The position numbers and the translations under genes were made by a program. DNA of 59,071 nucleotides, counting the filler, from Acidimicrobiia bacterium (GTDB taxonomy: Bacteria; Actinomycetota; Acidimicrobiia; Spongiisociales; JAHEDJ01), in assembly GCA_029210695.1 (NCBI GenBank). It is 15 parts of 15 records of this genome, joined end to end, with 100 filler letters (N's around TTAATTAATTAA, not from the genome) between each part and the next. Parts side by side here need not be neighbours in the genome. Positions count along the whole stretch, not along the records: positions 25,065 to 56,773 come from JARGFH010000045.1; 14 more parts are not named here. The stretch is one strand, 5' to 3'. This document shows, piece by piece, positions 25,980-56,469 of the stretch; within the stretch, counting starts at the first letter, position 1; each line of letters starts with the position of its first letter. Below the pieces are notes generated by a model. That model was given only the letters and a program-made list of their open reading frames with translations, was not told where the DNA came from and searched no databases.

Positions 25980-26594
25980 ACAGCTACTCCCCGTGGCTAT
26001 CAACCCTACGCTCCTCGAACCAGATCTGGGCAGGTGGAACGCGATCGTGCATGTCTCCCTGTAAGGGGCGCGGGTGCCCGAGAGACGCGACAACCCTGTC
26101 ATTTCGATGTCACAGACCCTCCAACCGCTGCTGGAGGGTGTGCAACGCCAAAGAACCGCCAGCCTCATGCCCGGACGATCCCACGACACCCTGTCACCAG
26201 AGTGTCAGCAACCCTGTCAGAAACCCTCCAACGACCGTATCGGGACCGTCGTTTCGGCCGATCTTGCCTTTTGGGCCGGGATGGACACCTGGATGATCGT
26301 GGTCCTCCCCGCAACCGGTGAGCGGGCGCCACACCGACACCCGGGTGACACGCCCGCGATGGATCATCGCTGAGATGGCGGCTGTAATAAGAGCGGCGCC
26401 TCGTCGGCCTGTCGATCGCCACCAGGGAGATCCCGGACATGCGACGGTGTCGCCGTTTGATCGCGTGACTTCGTGATCGTGCGTTCGCTCCGACTGGTCG
26501 TCCCGCTCGCGCTGTTGGTTGACCAGGGAGACAGTGAACACCAGACCCACGTCGCAGATGTTCAAGACCGTGGTTGCACCGGCACGGCCGCTCC

Positions 26595-31760: not shown

Positions 31761-32123
31761 TGGTACAGTGCTCCTTTCCGCCTCATAGAGAACCGCTCGA
31801 CAGTCTGGACCTGGTCCCATCGGGGCTCGGGATTACCGGAAACCACGCGGGATTCCGTCACCTCAGATTACACGCGTGTTGTTTATGGTGGAACACTTTT
31901 CCGCGGACGGACGCAGCATGGGGTCAACCCCGTGCGAGTCCCGTGTGACTCCATTTATCAGATTGTCACGGCCTGTCAGCAGCCCTGTCACAGATCCTGT
32001 CACAAACCCTCCAACTGCACATGTAGCCGGCAGTTTTGGCCGATGAGACAGGACACTTTGTGACCCACCGTCTGGGCACTCTGGTAACAGTCCGATGACA
32101 GGGTCGGTCCTCACGATGCAGCC

Positions 32124-32324
32124 ATGGATACCTTCGATCGCCTTCTCACCACCCAGCAACTGGCCGAGTACCTGGCGGTGCCCGTCGCGACCCTGTACGC
32201 CTGGAGACACGCCGGCGAGGGTCCACCCGGCTTTCGTGTGGGGAAGCACATACGCTACCGCTGGGGTGATGTCGACCAGTGGGTACGCAGCCAACTCCAC
32301 TCAACCGCCGGACGAACTCGTTGA
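32124..32324 (+). CDS. Excisionase-like HTH protein
   Basis: LLTTQQLAEYLAVPVATLYAWR..GEGPPGFRVGKHIRY. Confidence 0.9.
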   Translation: MDTFDRLLTTQQLAEYLAVPVATLYAWRHAGEGPPGFRVGKHIRYRWGDVDQWVRSQLHSTAGRTR

Positions 32325-32387: not shown

Positions 32388-33536
32388 GTGGCCCACATTC
32401 GACGACATCCCAACGCCCGTCATCGGTGGCAGGTCCGCTACGTCGACCCACATGGCAAGGAGCGATCGAAAAACTTCGCCCGCAAAGTCGACGCCGAGAA
32501 GTTCGTCCACACGGTGGAGGTCCAGAAGATCCGAGGCGAGTGGACCGACCCGGCCGCCGGAAAGGTCAACTTCTCCGAATGGGCCGCCCAGGTCGATGCC
32601 ACCCGCCCCAACCGACGCGAGTCGACCAGAGCACGCGACTCCTCCTACCTGAGGAACTTGATACTGCCGACCTTCGGCGATGCGGAGATCGGTGCGGTAC
32701 GACCAAACGAGATCAGAGCCTGGATCGCCGATCTGCAGGATCAAGGCTATGCCCCCGGTACGATCGCCAAGGCCTATCAGATCCTGTCACGCGCCTTCCG
32801 AGTGGCGGTCACCGACGGTCTCATCGCCCGCACCCCGTGTCGGGAGATCAAACTCCCCAAGGACGACCGCGACGAGAAACGCTTCCTGACCGTCTCTGAG
32901 ATCGAGCAACTCGCCGACGCCATCGGCCCCCGTTACCGGGTCTGGGTTCTCACCGCCGCGTACACGGGACTTCGATTCGGCGAACTCGCCGCTCTTCGCA
33001 CCGACGACCTCGACCTGCTCCGTCGCACCCTCCGCGTCGACGAGCAGCTCAGCAGGCAGGGCTCCTGGCAGATGGTGGCCGGACCACTCAAATCCAAGAA
33101 GGCCTACCGCACCATCGGCATCCCTGGCTTCCTCTGCGACGAGCTGGCGGCCCACCTCACCGATTACCCGTCGGCGTCGGACCTGGTGTTCTCCCACGCC
33201 CAAGGCGGGCCGCTTGACTACAACCGGTTCCGCCGCCGCCACTGGAACCCCGCCGTTGCCGCCTCCGTATGCACGCCTTGCACCCCACATGATCTCCGGC
33301 ACACCCACGTGGCCATGCTGATCGCCGAGAAGCAATCACCGCGATACATCGCCGACCGGCTTGGACATGAGAGCACAAGAACGGTGCTCGACGTCTACGG
33401 ACACCTTTACGAAGGCGTCGACGAGGCGGCGATGGAGGGTCTCGATCGCCTCCGATCGGAAGGCGTGGCCGACCTCGGGCGGCCGCCAGACGGGTCGAAT
33501 GTCGTGTCGATGGACACCAGATCGACGAAGCCCTAG
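32388..33536 (+). CDS. Tyrosine integrase
   Basis: YTGLRFGEL, HDLRHT, LGH..TVLDVYGH; catalytic residues intact. Confidence 0.95.
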   Translation: MAHIRRHPNARHRWQVRYVDPHGKERSKNFARKVDAEKFVHTVEVQKIRGEWTDPAAGKVNFSEWAAQVDATRPNRRESTRARDSSYLRNLILPTFGDAEIGAVRPNEIRAWIADLQDQGYAPGTIAKAYQILSRAFRVAVTDGLIARTPCREIKLPKDDRDEKRFLTVSEIEQLADAIGPRYRVWVLTAAYTGLRFGELAALRTDDLDLLRRTLRVDEQLSRQGSWQMVAGPLKSKKAYRTIGIPGFLCDELAAHLTDYPSASDLVFSHAQGGPLDYNRFRRRHWNPAVAASVCTPCTPHDLRHTHVAMLIAEKQSPRYIADRLGHESTRTVLDVYGHLYEGVDEAAMEGLDRLRSEGVADLGRPPDGSNVVSMDTRSTKP

Positions 33537-34292
33537 TCAGTTGGCCTGCTTGGCTGGGCTCCAGCGTCCTGGGCAGCCGTCGCAGTCCGACCACACGCGC
33601 TCGGCAGGTTCGCCGTTGACGAGCTGGCGGGCGTCGTCGGCGAGGACGACACCGACGAGGTGCCCTTGAGGGTCGGAAACTACCACGAGCCTGGTGCCGC
33701 GTTTGTCCATCCGCTCGAGAAGGTCGTGCAGAGACCCGTCGGGCCTGACCGTGGTCGGCCCGAGTTCCATGACGGTGTCGACAGCAACTTCGGCGTCAAC
33801 GTCCCAGGCTGACCCCCTGAGGCGCCCAATCACGATGCCGTCGCAGTCGACCACGAGCGCTTCATCCCATCCCGCCTCATTGGCTCGTCGGCGTGCGATG
33901 CCGAGTAGTTCATCTGGTTGGACGGTCGGGATATCAGGTCGGGTGGCATTGGAAATGCGGTGATCGGGCTCTTCGGTGCCCTCAACATCGAGGCCGGCGG
34001 CCTTCCAGTCGGCAATACCAGCGGTGTAGTCATAGACCTGTTCAAATCCGAGTGCTTCGAGCCGGCACGCGGCTCGTGGAGACATGTCTCACAAACCATC
34101 GTGTCAGTACACGACCACCGGTTTATCCCGACGCAACACCGACGTGGACTCAGCGTCGAGACGGCGAAGCGGAATGCTGACCGCACCGGGGATGTGTCGC
34201 GAGGTGTACTCGGCGTCGGGAAGCACATCCACGACTTGGGCCTGCTGGTTGATGAGTTCGAGTAGCCGGGCCCGGTCGATGGCGGTGACCAT
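33537..34292 (-). CDS. Rhodanese + CBS-domain protein with two in-frame UGA codons (putative Sec63 and Sec68)
   Basis: One frame from ATG 34292: VDVLP..EY..HIPGAVSIP..KPVVVY-TGA-HDGL-TGA-DMSPRAACRLEALGFEQVYDYTAGIADW, then CBS-like domains; 251 aa if read through. Confidence 0.75.
34058..34076 (-). promoter_or_regulatory. Candidate bacterial SECIS hairpin
   Basis: CGAGCCG-CGTGC-CGGCTCG: 7-bp stem with GU in the loop; 19 nt and 34 nt between the two UGAs and the loop. Confidence 0.6.
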
Positions 34293-34293
34293 G

Positions 34294-34596
34294 TCAGCTC
34301 GCCGCTTCGATCGCCGCTCGGAGTTGGTCGAGGCTCGGCGACCCAGCATAGCCGTCGTCGGCCGCATATACCCGGCAGGACAGACCCACCGGGGCATCAG
34401 GGTCGGCGAACGGATCGACCCCATCGATGAGGACGGTGGGTGAGCCTCGGAACCTGTGCCGTTCGGCTGCTTCCGGTGTTTCGATCAGCTGCCGGGCGAG
34501 GATCAGATCGAATCCCTCGGATCGGAGAGTCTCGAGGTGGGCGTCGGTCTCCTTCCAGTTGGGACAACCGTTGAAGTACTGCAATGTGACTCTCAT
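34294..34596 (-). CDS. Thioredoxin-fold protein of the type found in actinobacterial mer loci
   Basis: LQYFNGCPNW...FRGSPTVLIDGVDPF...LSCRVY. Confidence 0.8.
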   Translation of the reverse strand: MRVTLQYFNGCPNWKETDAHLETLRSEGFDLILARQLIETPEAAERHRFRGSPTVLIDGVDPFADPDAPVGLSCRVYAADDGYAGSPSLDQLRAAIEAAS

Positions 34597-34606
34597 GACA
34601 TCTACC

Positions 34607-35005
34607 TCACGTTGTCTCATCGATGACATGGCACACACAGGACTGCGGCCAATGGTCAACGATCGAGTCCATGCGCTCCTGTAGGGCCTGTAGTTCAGAA
34701 CGGAGACGGGTCAATTCAGCGATCCGATCATCGACCGCCTCCACCTCGCGAGTAATCGCGTCGCGGACCGGTTGACACGGCGCCTCGCCCGACGTCCACA
34801 GCTGGACGATCTCCCGGACGTCATCGAGCGGCAACTCGAGCGCACGCAGCCGGCGCACGAACCGCATCAACTCGACGTCGCCCTGGTCGTAGTCGCGATA
34901 TCCGGCGTCGCTGCGCGCCGGTGCAGGCAGCACACCAGCGGACTCGTAGAAACGAATCGCCGACGCCTCCAGAGATGCTTGTTCTGCAGCGTGTCCAATC
35001 CTCAT
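34607..35005 (-). CDS. Heavy-metal-responsive MerR-family regulator
   Basis: MRIG..IRFYE..GYRDY; metal-binding Cys in APC and the C-terminal CVCHVI. Confidence 0.9.
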   Translation of the reverse strand: MRIGHAAEQASLEASAIRFYESAGVLPAPARSDAGYRDYDQGDVELMRFVRRLRALELPLDDVREIVQLWTSGEAPCQPVRDAITREVEAVDDRIAELTRLRSELQALQERMDSIVDHWPQSCVCHVIDETT

Positions 35006-35012
35006 AGTCAAT

Positions 35013-35043
35013 ACCCTAAACCTTCGAGCTACTCGAAGGTCAA
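35013..35043 (-). promoter_or_regulatory. MerR-type promoter/operator
   Basis: TTGACC-19 bp-TAGGGT with the perfect palindrome ACCTTCGAG-TAG-CTCGAAGGT; ATG 7 bp after the -10. Confidence 0.85.
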
Positions 35044-35401
35044 GCAGGAACCGCCGAAAGCTCACCGCGAACCCGACAATGCCGGGGCCGGACAGATCAA
35101 CCTTCCCGAGGAGCTATAGCGCGCACTCACCCGCGTTTGGGATCCGGGAATCTCGAACCCATCGCGGCTACCACTACCCGGCGATCAGCCTTCCACCGAC
35201 CTGCAAGAGGGCCTGGCGAGGTCGAAAGCCGACATGTGACATCGGGAACGGAAGCGTCCGAAAAGCGTCGCCTCGCAGTTGCCCGGCGGCGCCGAGGACG
35301 CGGGCCCAGGTGATCTCTAGCCAGGTCCTATCCGGAACTCTGACGGACACTAGACGGACACCAGGGCCAACAGGAGGCCCACTGCTAGACCCGAAAATGC
35401 C

Positions 35402-35429
35402 AGAATCCCCTGTGTTTACAGGGGATTCT
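35402..35429. terminator. Hairpin 3' of the tRNA-derived att site
   Basis: AGAATCCCCTGT-GTTT-ACAGGGGATTCT, perfect 12-bp stem. Confidence 0.6.
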
Positions 35430-35431
35430 GA

Positions 35432-35478
35432 GGTGGGCGCTACTGGGATCGAACCAGTGACCTCTGCCGTGTGAAGGC
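35432..35478 (-). repeat. att direct repeat: 3' 47 bp of tRNA-Val
   Basis: Identical to 56396-56442. Confidence 0.95.
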
Positions 35479-35697
35479 TTGTCGGGGCAGTTCCGTGACC
35501 TGGGAGTCTTCTCAGAAATGCCTTCTGAACAGGGCTTTCGTGCTTTGCTCCCCTTCGTCGTTTCGCACTGTTTCGCGCCCGTCTGTGTCAGATCGGTGTC
35601 GGATTCAATCACTGGCCAGTGCATCGGTCAATGCTTCGTATCCGCCCTGGCATCTAGTCTCATCAGTGGCCGGTCAAAACGCCAGAGTGGAGCGATC

Positions 35698-50253: not shown

Positions 50254-50766
50254 ATGGACGACCTCACTCCGAATGCCGTCATAGCCTGGAATGTGCGCCG
50301 GCTCCGCCGTGAGCGAGGTTGGACGCAGGCCGCGCTGGCCGAACGGCTGGGCGAGCGGGACGACAAGCCGTGGACCTTCTCGATGGTCTCCGACGCGGAG
50401 ACCGCCGGCCGGACGGACCGGGATCGGCAGTTCACAGCCAACGAGGTGAGCGTCCTCGCCCGCGTCTTCCAGGTGTCGGTCATTGCCCTGTTCGTGCCCG
50501 ATCCGATGCAGCTGGTCAGGATCGGCAACGGCGTTTACACCCGTGAGGACTACGTCGACCTGGTGCTCCAGTTCCCGCCAGAAACGATGCCCGACGGCTT
50601 CGAGCGGCGCCTCCAGAACCAGTACGCCGTCCGCAACCGGGAGAGCACCGACCGTCTGGCTCGCAGCCGACCGGCTCGGACGGCGGATCCGAGCAGCGAC
50701 CTCGCGCAACAGCTGCTCCAGCAGTTCTTCCACTTCGACCGAGGAGAGCACGATGTCGAGCGTTGA
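50254..50766 (+). CDS. XRE-family HTH repressor
   Basis: NVRRLRRERGWTQAALAERL; GGAGG RBS before ATG 50254. Confidence 0.87.
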   Translation: MDDLTPNAVIAWNVRRLRRERGWTQAALAERLGERDDKPWTFSMVSDAETAGRTDRDRQFTANEVSVLARVFQVSVIALFVPDPMQLVRIGNGVYTREDYVDLVLQFPPETMPDGFERRLQNQYAVRNRESTDRLARSRPARTADPSSDLAQQLLQQFFHFDRGEHDVER

Positions 50767-51841
50767 CAAGACCGAGTACGGCACGTACCGGGTCCGCTTC
50801 CGCACCCCAGACGGTCATTCCCGATCCAAGACCTTCAAACGGCGAGTAGACGCCGACGCCTTCGCCGCCACAGTCGAGACCTCGAAGCTCTTCGGCACGT
50901 ACACCGACCCGTCGCTCGGCAAGACCCGGTTCGGCGAGTGGGCGCCACATGTCCAAGCTTCTCGGATCAACCTGGCTCCCTCTACGCGCGCTCGGGACGA
51001 TACCTACTTCCGGAGCTTCATCCTCCCGTACTTCGCCGACGAATCGTTGTCGAAGGTGAACCCGCTGCATGTCCAAGGCTGGGTGAGCGCGCTGCTCGCC
51101 AAGGACTACGCCCCAGCCACCATCCGCAAGGCGTACCAGCTGCTGAGCGCCGTGTTCGATGCGGCCGTCACTTCTGACCTGATCGCCCGCTCCCCGTGCC
51201 GAGGGATCAAGTTGCCGAAGGACTCCCGAGAGGAGATGCGGTTCCTCTCGCCGGATGAGATCGAGAAGCTAGCCGACGCCATCGACCCGCGCTACCGAAC
51301 GCTCGTTCTCACCGGTGCCTACACCGGCCTTCGGCCTGGCGAGCTGCTCGGTCTGAAGGTGAGCCGGCTCAACATGCTCAGACGCCAGGTACAAGTCGTC
51401 GAGACACTCACCGAAGTGAAGGGGCAGGTCCGGCTGGGCCCTCCGAAGTCGAAGGCCTCCCGTCGGACCGTGACGATGCCGGCATTCCTCGTCGAGGAGT
51501 TCGCCCAGCACCTTGCACAGTATCGGGATCCCGACGACTGGGTCTTCTCATCGCCGCAGGGCGGACCTGTTCGCCGAACGAACTTCCGCCGCCGGTTCTG
51601 GCTGCCAGCGGTGCGGGCATCCGTCGGCGAGCCGCTCCGTTTCCACGACCTCCGCCATAGCCATGCAGCCCTCCTCATCGCGCAAGGTGTTCATCCGAAA
51701 GTCCTCCAGGATCGCCTTGGTCATGCTTCAATCACAACGACTCTCGACACATACGGGCACCTGATGACGGGGTTAGATGAGGCCGCGGCAGACGCTCTGG
51801 ACGCGTCACGACGCGAGTCACCCACAAGAAACACGCGGTGA
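50753..51841 (+). CDS. Tyrosine integrase
   Basis: YTGLRPGEL, FHDLRHSH, LGHASITTTLDTYGH; clearly related to 32388-33536. Confidence 0.95.
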   Translation: MSSVDKTEYGTYRVRFRTPDGHSRSKTFKRRVDADAFAATVETSKLFGTYTDPSLGKTRFGEWAPHVQASRINLAPSTRARDDTYFRSFILPYFADESLSKVNPLHVQGWVSALLAKDYAPATIRKAYQLLSAVFDAAVTSDLIARSPCRGIKLPKDSREEMRFLSPDEIEKLADAIDPRYRTLVLTGAYTGLRPGELLGLKVSRLNMLRRQVQVVETLTEVKGQVRLGPPKSKASRRTVTMPAFLVEEFAQHLAQYRDPDDWVFSSPQGGPVRRTNFRRRFWLPAVRASVGEPLRFHDLRHSHAALLIAQGVHPKVLQDRLGHASITTTLDTYGHLMTGLDEAAADALDASRRESPTRNTR

Positions 51842-56394: not shown

Positions 56395-56469
56395 TGGTGG
56401 GCGCTACTGGGATCGAACCAGTGACCTCTGCCGTGTGAAGGCAGCGCTCTCCCGCTGAGCTAAGCGCCC
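56395..56469 (-). tRNA. tRNA-Val(CAC)
   Basis: GGGCGCTTAGCTCAGCGGGAGAGCGCTGCCTTCACACGGCAGAGGTCACTGGTTCGATCCCAGTAGCGCCCACCA: full cloverleaf with encoded CCA. Confidence 0.97.

Follow-up and report, generated by a model that had tools for sequence, protein, structure and literature searches.

How might a bacterium deal with a soft metal when its MerR-regulated operon encodes a selenoprotein, and neither MerA nor a transporter? The question is raised by three close-packed genes in the draft genome of an Acidimicrobiia bacterium (GCA_029210695.1; GTDB Spongiisociales, JAHEDJ01). The window, i.e. the whole stretch of DNA analysed, comprises 59,071 nucleotides (nt) in 15 joined parts. Its positions 25065-56773 are a single contig (C121, JARGFH010000045.1) of a 3.9-Mb genome with 63% G+C. 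Direct reading and translation of the minus strand of this contig gave the order MerR-family regulator, DF-family protein, and a rhodanese domain fused to a CBS pair (Table 1). A first-pass annotation of the window had suggested a mobile, selenium-based metal sequestration or detoxification module distinct from classical mer operons. All computational criteria identify the third gene as a selenoprotein gene, with a predicted translation through two UGA codons situated 15 nt apart. For the operon as a whole, we assign a probability of about one half to a metal-responsive thiol/selenol detoxification function, in which it would deal with Hg(II), as one half of a mer-like system that is assisted by selenium and works independently of MerA.

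Read through its in-frame stops, the third gene encodes a rhodanese domain (PF00581, 63 bits), a CBS domain (PF00571, 43 bits, one repeat) and a C-terminal W-x2-C-x2-C-P-G motif. Both TGA codons, 63 and 68, lie in the rhodanese active-site loop, VVVY-U-HDGL-U-DMSPRAAC, U denoting selenocysteine (Sec). The putative selenoprotein of the first-pass annotation is thus retained, with two in-frame TGAs rather than one. An AlphaFold model of the full-length protein reached a predicted local distance difference test (pLDDT) of 88.8 and a predicted template modelling score (pTM) of 0.58. Residues 1-110 were modelled as one rhodanese domain spanning both Sec positions (pLDDT 90-97). The nearest solved chain to this part in Foldseek is BH2092 (3nhv), with 33% identity and a root-mean-square deviation of 1.5. 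The second half matches many solved CBS pairs with template modelling (TM) scores to the target of 0.7-0.87, as in a Bateman module. The CxxC sits on a C-terminal beta-hairpin that was modelled with less confidence.

A database search with this protein yielded 707 homologues, the best 120 of which were inspected for length. Three are full length (P0017, P0020 and P0024; 248-251 amino acids, aa) and carry cysteine at both Sec positions. The other 117 are gene calls of 177-196 aa; six of these were aligned, and all start at Met70, just past the second TGA. Public databases mis-annotate the selenoprotein family in these 117 entries as 'CBS domain-containing' or hypothetical proteins of about 180 aa. 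At the DNA level, 178 related loci were confirmed and 80 kept (numbered L below), and codons 63 and 68 could be typed by pattern in 78 of them. The combination TGA/TGA was found in 48 loci, Cys/TGA in 29 and Cys/Cys in one. The two remaining loci have in-frame stops too, L043 at both positions and L075 at the second, which brings the totals for the 80 loci to 49 stop/stop, 30 Cys/stop and one Cys/Cys. Codon 63, the rhodanese catalytic position, is Cys or Sec in all typed loci. The loci come from Acidimicrobiia, from other Actinomycetota including cultured Micromonospora, and from some bins labelled Chloroflexota.

A hairpin resembling a Sec insertion sequence (SECIS) follows the second UGA. 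Its stem starts 13 nt past UGA68, and the GU of its loop lies 24-25 nt from the U of UGA68, a spacing which we take to be close to the fdhF geometry of E. coli. Among 47 TGA/TGA sequences, all 329 of 329 pair cells are paired and the consensus loop is CGUGY. A compensatory change from C-G to U-A occurs in two of the 47 sequences, at the cost of an Arg-to-Gln replacement; the same change was seen by eye in L062, a member of the Cys/TGA set. The four-fold degenerate sites within the hairpin (codons 74, 75, 77 and 78) have entropies of 0.24, 0, 0 and 0.10 bit, compared with 0.8-1.95 bit at comparable sites elsewhere in codons 41-105. This low synonymous-site entropy indicates a constraint at the RNA level on top of the conservation of the protein. 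An alternative hairpin close to UGA63 (34103-34066) was present in the minimum-free-energy structure and was rejected: its z-score was -0.25, 91% of its positions were paired, and its covariation was no better than that of shuffled alignments (149/500). The Rfam scan of the window at gathering thresholds returned no SECIS or other RNA family within the operon.

The genome encodes a complete Sec machinery: selA (434 bits), selB (298 bits), selD (399 bits) and a tRNA-Sec with anticodon TCA (73 bits). The selA and selB genes are adjacent. The selD gene (G000:C94:13659-14588, L105; G000 being the genome of the window) itself has one in-frame TGA and is of the Sec type. Each gene of the operon terminates at a TGA, and the triplet is therefore not generally a sense codon here.

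No NCBIfam model (release 20, June 2026) matches the rhodanese/CBS protein above its cut-off. It also has no place among the five rhodanese selenoprotein forms in the table of a 2026 review, to judge from the accessible part of that source (PMC13188914). Full-text searches, limited to the papers of one library, turned up neither a rhodanese/CBS selenoprotein nor its association with MerR or MerB, although the supplements of two papers (Haft and Tolstoy 2025; Haft and Gwadz 2023) could bear on this. A rhodanese domain and CBS pair with a (Cys/Sec)-x4-Sec loop thus appears to be a widespread, previously uncatalogued selenoprotein form.

The three genes are an autoregulated operon. They are separated by 10 nt (MerR to DF, 34597-34606) and 1 nt (DF to rhodanese, 34293), in agreement with the tight spacing described in the first-pass annotation. 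The MerR-type promoter and perfect operator described there were likewise recovered: a dyad of the 9-3-9 type lies within the over-long interval between the -35 and -10 hexamers, the arrangement typical of MerR-family promoters (19-20 nt). The start codon follows the -10 hexamer so closely that the transcript from merR through the rhodanese/CBS gene is probably leaderless. A standard sigma-70 scan for spacers of 16-18 nt and a terminator scan, both over 33300-35500, gave no sites. The promoter escapes the former because its spacer is of the longer MerR type, which works poorly as a promoter before the activator has distorted it.

The dyad occupies the same register upstream of a co-directional MerR gene in all 17 related loci that were examined. 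Counting gave a spacer of 19 nt in the window, L017, L026 and L031. The ATG lies 6-8 nt past the -10 hexamer in L017, L018, L021, L023, L038 and L048, while others have a leader with GGAGG. The outer dyad bases, ACCTTC-N9-GAAGGT, presumably resemble CueR-type boxes. This pattern occurs once in the window, where shuffled sequences lead one to expect 0.05 occurrences, and its only perfect copy in the whole genome is that of the operon itself. The regulator therefore appears to have a single target. A genome-wide regulon search allowing one mismatch found 12 operator sites versus 7 for the reversed control, a difference taken as chance.

The regulator has three domains above the Pfam cut-offs (PF13411, 58 bits; PF09278, 58 bits; PF00376, 40 bits). 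Its best relatives in the PDB are PbrR (5gpe), CadR (6jgv) and Bacillus MerR (4ua1), followed by CueR (1q05). Residue C77 aligns with the metal-liganding cysteine at the start of the dimerisation helix in 5gpe, 6jgv and 4ua1 (C79 of MerR, C77 of CadR). An alignment of 26 MerR homologues from related loci showed C77, P120, C123 and C125 to be invariant in all of them, and the Cys-bearing MerR of the first-pass annotation is borne out in this form. Two subtypes occur. The co-directional one, including the window, carries the motif D-x-W-P-x-S-C-V-C-H; the one transcribed divergently from its targets carries P-x2-C-x5-C. Sensors of Hg(II), Cd(II) and Pb(II) within the MerR family use three conserved thiols. 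By alignment, the regulator is a metal-type MerR with three conserved cysteines, and the metal itself is inferred. The window protein differs from CadR-, PbrR- and CueR-type regulators, its best solved relatives, in the conserved motif of the co-directional subtype and in having its loop cysteines at 123/125, not at 112/119-122.

The product of the second gene has no Pfam match. Its score on the model 'DF family (seleno)protein' (NF049942) is borderline and falls below the cut-off, while an orthologue in L091 reached 105.7 bits on the same model. The window protein and 29 aligned orthologues are all of the Cys form, with Cys11. Invariant residues are C11 in GCPNW, F49-x-G-S-P53 with a cis-Pro-like GSP53, and C74. 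An AlphaFold 2 model (pLDDT 95.9) found its best partners, among the PDB matches listed, in thioredoxin structures of E. coli (E from 1.9e-3, probability 1.00, TM 0.53-0.59). An Atlas look-up returned thioredoxin and DF-family clusters only, a lead that agrees with the fold search. The model supports a thioredoxin fold of a divergent, single-Cys type. In the part of the deep-Sep paper available, 'hypothetical protein DF' is named as a predicted selenoprotein and its function is left unassigned (PMC12013277).

Conservation of the neighbourhood was followed across the 80 loci. DF is present in 47; in 37 of these it immediately precedes the rhodanese gene, co-directional and no more than 50 nt away. 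A MerR homologue occurs within 4 kb in 36 loci and is divergent upstream in 12. The exact order and strand of the window, MerR, DF and rhodanese, recur in 15, so the co-occurrence of the three genes on which the first-pass annotation depended is confirmed. The commonest functional neighbour is a MerB-family protein whose catalytic triad is complete by alignment (23 loci plus L028, i.e. 24 of 80). It passes the Pfam MerB cut-off (71 bits) and misses the NCBIfam equivalog cut-off (103 vs about 200 bits). Aligned to solved MerB and to MerB2, it keeps WCALD (C96, D99) and CPQVNFF (C159).

A Sec-containing membrane protein accompanies the module in 12 loci (L023, L026, L027, L031, L036, L043, L051, L052, L073, L074, L075 and L076). 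It is encoded by a multi-pass gene of 278 codons that has been called as two open reading frames (ORFs), e.g. L027:1084-1920. An in-frame TGA lies in AGFG-U-TGP(L/I)LAG in 12 of 12 loci, and an earlier cysteine in FFSPCSFP. Pfam and NCBIfam searches with the split and the read-through protein gave no significant family; a match to the membrane part of TsoB at E 0.11 is a lead only. Its motifs presumably recall CcdA and DsbD, and it is possibly an uncatalogued Sec-containing protein of this kind. F420-type PPOX proteins occur in eight loci, DUF3237 in five and DsrE or SQR-like genes in three to four. The ORFs within 2.2 kb that encode 90 aa or more number 213; removal of redundancy left 186 candidates, and 135 of these were scanned as further neighbours. 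No HMA, MerT, MerP, MerC or MerA-type protein was among the 135, and the rest were unrelated housekeeping genes. DUF3179 was seen near the module in L017, L032 and L069; this family is listed with Sec forms in the review table, as far as the available part of the source goes (PMC13188914).

The window operon resembles classical mer operons (Tn501/Tn21 type and Gram-positive) in its activator with three conserved cysteines and in its dyad within a 19-nt spacer. In Gram-positive mer operons, merR is the first gene and the regulator is co-transcribed with its targets; the window operon is built likewise. Relatives of the module add MerB with the C96/D99/C159 triad in the same cluster. The differences lie in the structural genes, which are DF and the double-Sec rhodanese/CBS gene and not mer genes, and in the C-x-C loop and sub-threshold MerR score of the regulator. 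The cassette has no transporter gene, and no MerT, MerP, MerC or HMA domain was found among the genes of its contig. A merA gene was missing above the cut-off genome-wide (best score 305 vs 454 bits), as the first-pass annotation had it for the operon. The operon is mer-like in its regulation, and by gene content it is not a canonical mer operon, lacking MerA and Hg uptake genes. The possibility that it is a fragment of a larger mer locus, which would have spoken against the first-pass annotation, holds in part: relatives have MerB and the Sec membrane protein, and the window has a minimal version. Comparison of the loci therefore suggests the minimal form of a larger, MerA-less mer-like neighbourhood, not a self-contained novelty. 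The selenium-based module proposed at first stands as a conserved accessory selenoprotein operon under a three-Cys MerR; its distinctness from mer is weakened, since it is often part of such a larger locus. What is new would be a variant on known themes, a MerR-controlled metal-response operon combined with a rhodanese selenoprotein.

Two described selenoprotein systems are close to this combination. TsoB (NF045694; Haft and Tolstoy 2025) is a rhodanese/DsbD-fusion selenoprotein with two Sec in a U-x4-U motif, according to the accessible part of the review (PMC13188914). The window rhodanese shares the U-x4-U motif, and the relatives that encode the Sec membrane protein (12/80) or DsbD_TM (two loci) alongside resemble a TsoB in pieces. 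However, the window protein matched the TsoB model through its rhodanese part alone, with 34.5 bits where 805 are required, and its rhodanese is fused to a CBS pair and CxxC tail, not to a membrane domain. The selenocysteine-assisted organometallic (SAO) system (Haft and Gwadz 2023) comprises several selenoproteins, one of them thioredoxin-like, clustered with the MerB-like SaoL, and organometal chemistry has been proposed for it in the same partly available source (PMC13188914). SAO and the present module both cluster selenoproteins with a MerB-family lyase. In contrast to SAO, no SaoB, SaoC, SaoP, SaoT or SaoX model matched here, the phylum is another one, MerB is of the Cys form and the selenoprotein is a rhodanese.

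A mechanism can be drawn for the detoxification reading. A dimer of the regulator would sit on the dyad inside the over-long spacer and bind a thiophilic metal through C77 of one subunit and C123 and C125 of the other. The metal-bound form would untwist the promoter and turn on the merR-DF-rhodanese/CBS transcript. Because of the MerB in relatives and the three-thiol sensor, mercury is the best-guess inducer, most likely as Hg(II) or an organomercurial; Cd or Pb may also act. The conserved hairpin just past the UGAs would serve as SECIS, with both codons read as selenocysteine. The Sec-x4-Sec (or Cys-x4-Sec) pair in the rhodanese loop might then take up or process the soft metal through an exchange of selenolate/thiolate ligands, which would spare the thiols of the cell. 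DF could be an exchange or reduction partner through Cys11 and Cys74, and the C-terminal CxxC may join a ligand-exchange or redox relay. In relatives, DF and the rhodanese/CBS protein would act beside a complete MerB and the Sec membrane protein, without MerA. More tentatively, MerB or the thiols of the cell would hand Hg(II) to the loop, which would turn it into inert Hg-Se/Hg-S species or pass it outward. Such a selenium-dependent, MerA-independent route, with DF and, in fuller loci, MerB and the CcdA-like protein, is a possible outcome to which we give limited credence.

If true, the proposal would answer how many MerB-only bacteria survive their own Hg(II) product. A study of mer gene diversity records, in its accessible part, MerB in many genomes that lack MerA and treats the fate of Hg(II) in them as an unsolved problem (PMC8261052). 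With a metal-type MerR, a frequent complete MerB and no MerA, the module would be a concrete candidate that makes this fate directly testable. The rules of SECIS spacing in bacteria could also be probed in this compact natural case, where a single strongly conserved hairpin accompanies a pair of Sec codons at a distance of five codons; if the selenium-dependent route holds, one SECIS hairpin would incidentally serve to decode both UGAs, which lie 15 nt from each other.

Several findings weigh against this detoxification reading. The regulator stays under every NCBIfam equivalog cut-off (CadR/PbrR 94 vs 151 bits, CueR 90 vs 147, MerR 76 vs 151, ZntR 73 vs 168). Its C-terminal Cys pair begins about ten residues later than in solved relatives, where the usual C-x7-9-C starts near 112. 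Owing to this unusual loop and these scores, the metal specificity is unreadable from the sequence. Measured from UGA63, the hairpin loop is 34 nt away, which is at the upper limit of usual SECIS spacing, and its GU is 39-40 nt from the U of that codon. The hairpin also overlaps the invariant residues RAACRLE, and part of its conservation is at the protein level. In 22 of the 80 loci, some of them on short contigs, none of DF, MerR, MerB and the membrane protein was found, and the genome of the window lacks the neighbour-type (cluster-3) MerB and the membrane protein. A stoichiometric Hg sink made from an expensive selenoprotein is not obviously economical. Finally, a DsbD_TM protein and a TlpA-like redoxin lie directly upstream of the rhodanese gene in L044 and L077, and in L096, L087 and L088 the module has DsrE and type III SQR-like genes in its vicinity. 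The last two observations would suit a regulator that senses reactive sulfur, disulfide stress or electrophiles, and a rhodanese(Sec)-CBS protein that forms with DF a persulfide or (di)selenide relay, as a sulfurtransferase or persulfide reductase, with no direct metal role. Rhodanese domains are sulfurtransferases by family (PF00581), the Sec-x4-Sec spacing is that listed for TsoB, and a CcdA-like Sec membrane protein is present in 12 of the 80 loci. Yet the best solved relatives place the regulator in the metal-binding branch with the C77 ligand position present, the dyad promoter of the CueR/MerR kind is conserved, and complete-triad MerB occurs in 24 loci against sulfur genes in three to five. 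We consider a purely sulfur- or redox-based role the main rival, credible though rather unlikely.

A response to selenite, tellurite or arsenite, in which the rhodanese loop reduces or carries the metalloid, e.g. as perselenide, is improbable. Rhodanese-fold proteins include arsenate reductases and in-vitro selenium carriers, and an organism with a Sec-type SelD and several selenoproteins would need selenium trafficking. However, genes of the ars or ter type or for selenium uptake were not seen among the 135 scanned neighbours. Position +6 of the loop is Asp69, where the C-x5-R motif of phosphatases and arsenate reductases has Arg, and the best matches of the regulator include no MerR-family sensor of these oxyanions. 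Least probable is that the TGAs are true stops or sequencing errors, which would leave a pseudogene or two separate products, a rhodanese stub of 62 aa and a CBS protein of 182 aa. The short public gene calls from Met70 agree with this. Against it, 79 of the 80 loci, from Acidimicrobiia to Micromonospora and Chloroflexota, preserve the frame, the rhodanese fold and a stop at codon 68. Cys codons occupy exactly these positions in the remaining loci, the hairpin is conserved with compensation beside a complete Sec machinery, and the model folds across both positions without interruption. On these sequences and models, such an artefact is already contradicted.

Table 1. Features of the operon and its surroundings, in positions of the window
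Feature	Position	Strand	Remarks
MerR-family regulator gene	34607..35005	-	132 aa; PF13411, PF09278, PF00376
DF-family thioredoxin-fold gene	34294..34596	-	100 aa, Cys form; NF049942 68 bits vs cut-off 70
Rhodanese + CBS-pair gene	33537..34292	-	251 codons/aa, predicted Sec63 and Sec68
-35 hexamer TTGACC	35038..35043	-	read from sequence; TTGACC in 16/17 related loci
Spacer, 19 nt	35019..35037	-	between -35 and -10
-10 hexamer TAGGGT (TAnnnT type)	35013..35018	-	ATG 7 nt further on
Operator dyad ACCTTCGAG-TAG-CTCGAAGGT	35020..35040		perfect 9-nt arms, 9-3-9, inside 19-nt spacer
UGA codon 63	34104..34106	-	catalytic-Cys position of rhodanese loop; TGA 48/78, Cys 30/78 loci typed
UGA codon 68	34089..34091	-	same rhodanese loop, five residues on; TGA 77/78 loci typed
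SECIS-like hairpin C-GAGCCG-CGUGC-CGGCUC-G	34058..34076	-	7-bp stem, 5-nt loop with GU
Tyrosine integrase	32388..33536	+	PF00589, PF22022, PF14659; convergent, abuts rhodanese stop codon
Excisionase-like HTH_17 protein	32124..32324	+	PF12728
att repeat, 47-nt copy of 3' part of tRNA-Val(CAC)	35432..35478	-	identical to 56396-56442
Intact tRNA-Val(CAC) with other att copy	56395..56469	-	contains 56396-56442

The cassette lies between an integrase and an att site, as the first-pass annotation stated: the integrase abuts it at 33536, and the 47-nt tRNA-Val repeat stands on its other side. A tyrosine integrase and a direct repeat of a tRNA 3' end, the marks of a tRNA island, are both present. The integrase next to the cassette is 53% identical to a second one at 50483-51841. 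The MerR operon, its integrase and the excisionase-like gene lie to the left of the distal att copy, outside the 21-kb island between the two att copies (35479-56395), and each integrase points toward an att copy with cargo in between. This layout suggests that a single tRNA received two islands in tandem and that the operon is cargo of the older island, next to its integrase. The window holds two att copies with the cassette outside them, and no second boundary repeat enclosing the cassette was found; a third att copy or convincing long direct repeats to its left were not found either. The far end of the older island is not locatable because the contig begins in sequence that is repeated elsewhere in the genome. 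The mobility first proposed thus holds insofar as the module is accessory and adjoins an integrase and an att site; it does not extend to the island bounded by both att copies, since the operon belongs to the second, adjacent one.

The rhodanese gene was found in none of six same-genus genomes and in 8 of 54 other genomes of the order (6 of 52 without G010 and G021, which are flagged as unpublished). The 7 kb to the left of the excisionase-like gene have no counterpart in the six same-genus genomes. Four of the 80 loci have an integrase within 4 kb, and three have IS21-type genes. The module is accessory DNA, sometimes but not always next to mobility genes.

The 21-kb island is a defence island with GmrSD, a type I restriction-modification system (hsdM, hsdS, hsdR) and a SIR2-like gene. 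It also holds an M48 peptidase-like gene, a HerA/TrwB-like ATPase, the integrase at 50483-51841 and a 1244-aa protein with a faint PIN-TPR-GreABC match. The first 1.17 kb or so of contig C121 (25065-26240) have an 80% identical copy on C171 and copies of 65-69% identity on C148, C6 and C96, and its first 77 nt recur at 100% on C94, C49, C53 and C104. This repeat is probably like an insertion sequence and broke the assembly. Imperfect direct repeats at 26203-26232 and 31974-32015 (TGTCAG/C..CCCTGTCA..AACCCTCCAAC), with 77-83% identity and 5.8 kb apart, flank a segment immediately left of the excisionase-like gene that holds TatD, an unknown gene, a KAP NTPase and DUF2188.

Elsewhere in the genome of the window, a MerB-family gene (PF03243, 57.9 bits) is located at G000:C159:56685-57041 (L106:~1213-1990). 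It has one in-frame TGA, in RPFR-U-ANMNLF, which by eye falls at the C159 motif CPQVNFF of MerB. Its neighbours are a luciferase-like oxidoreductase and a fumarylacetoacetase-like gene. It is possibly a Sec form of a MerB-like lyase, judging from the position of the TGA. On another contig of the stretch, 58878-58960 matches the Rfam family of the actinobacterial small RNA Ms_AS-4 with 80 bits.

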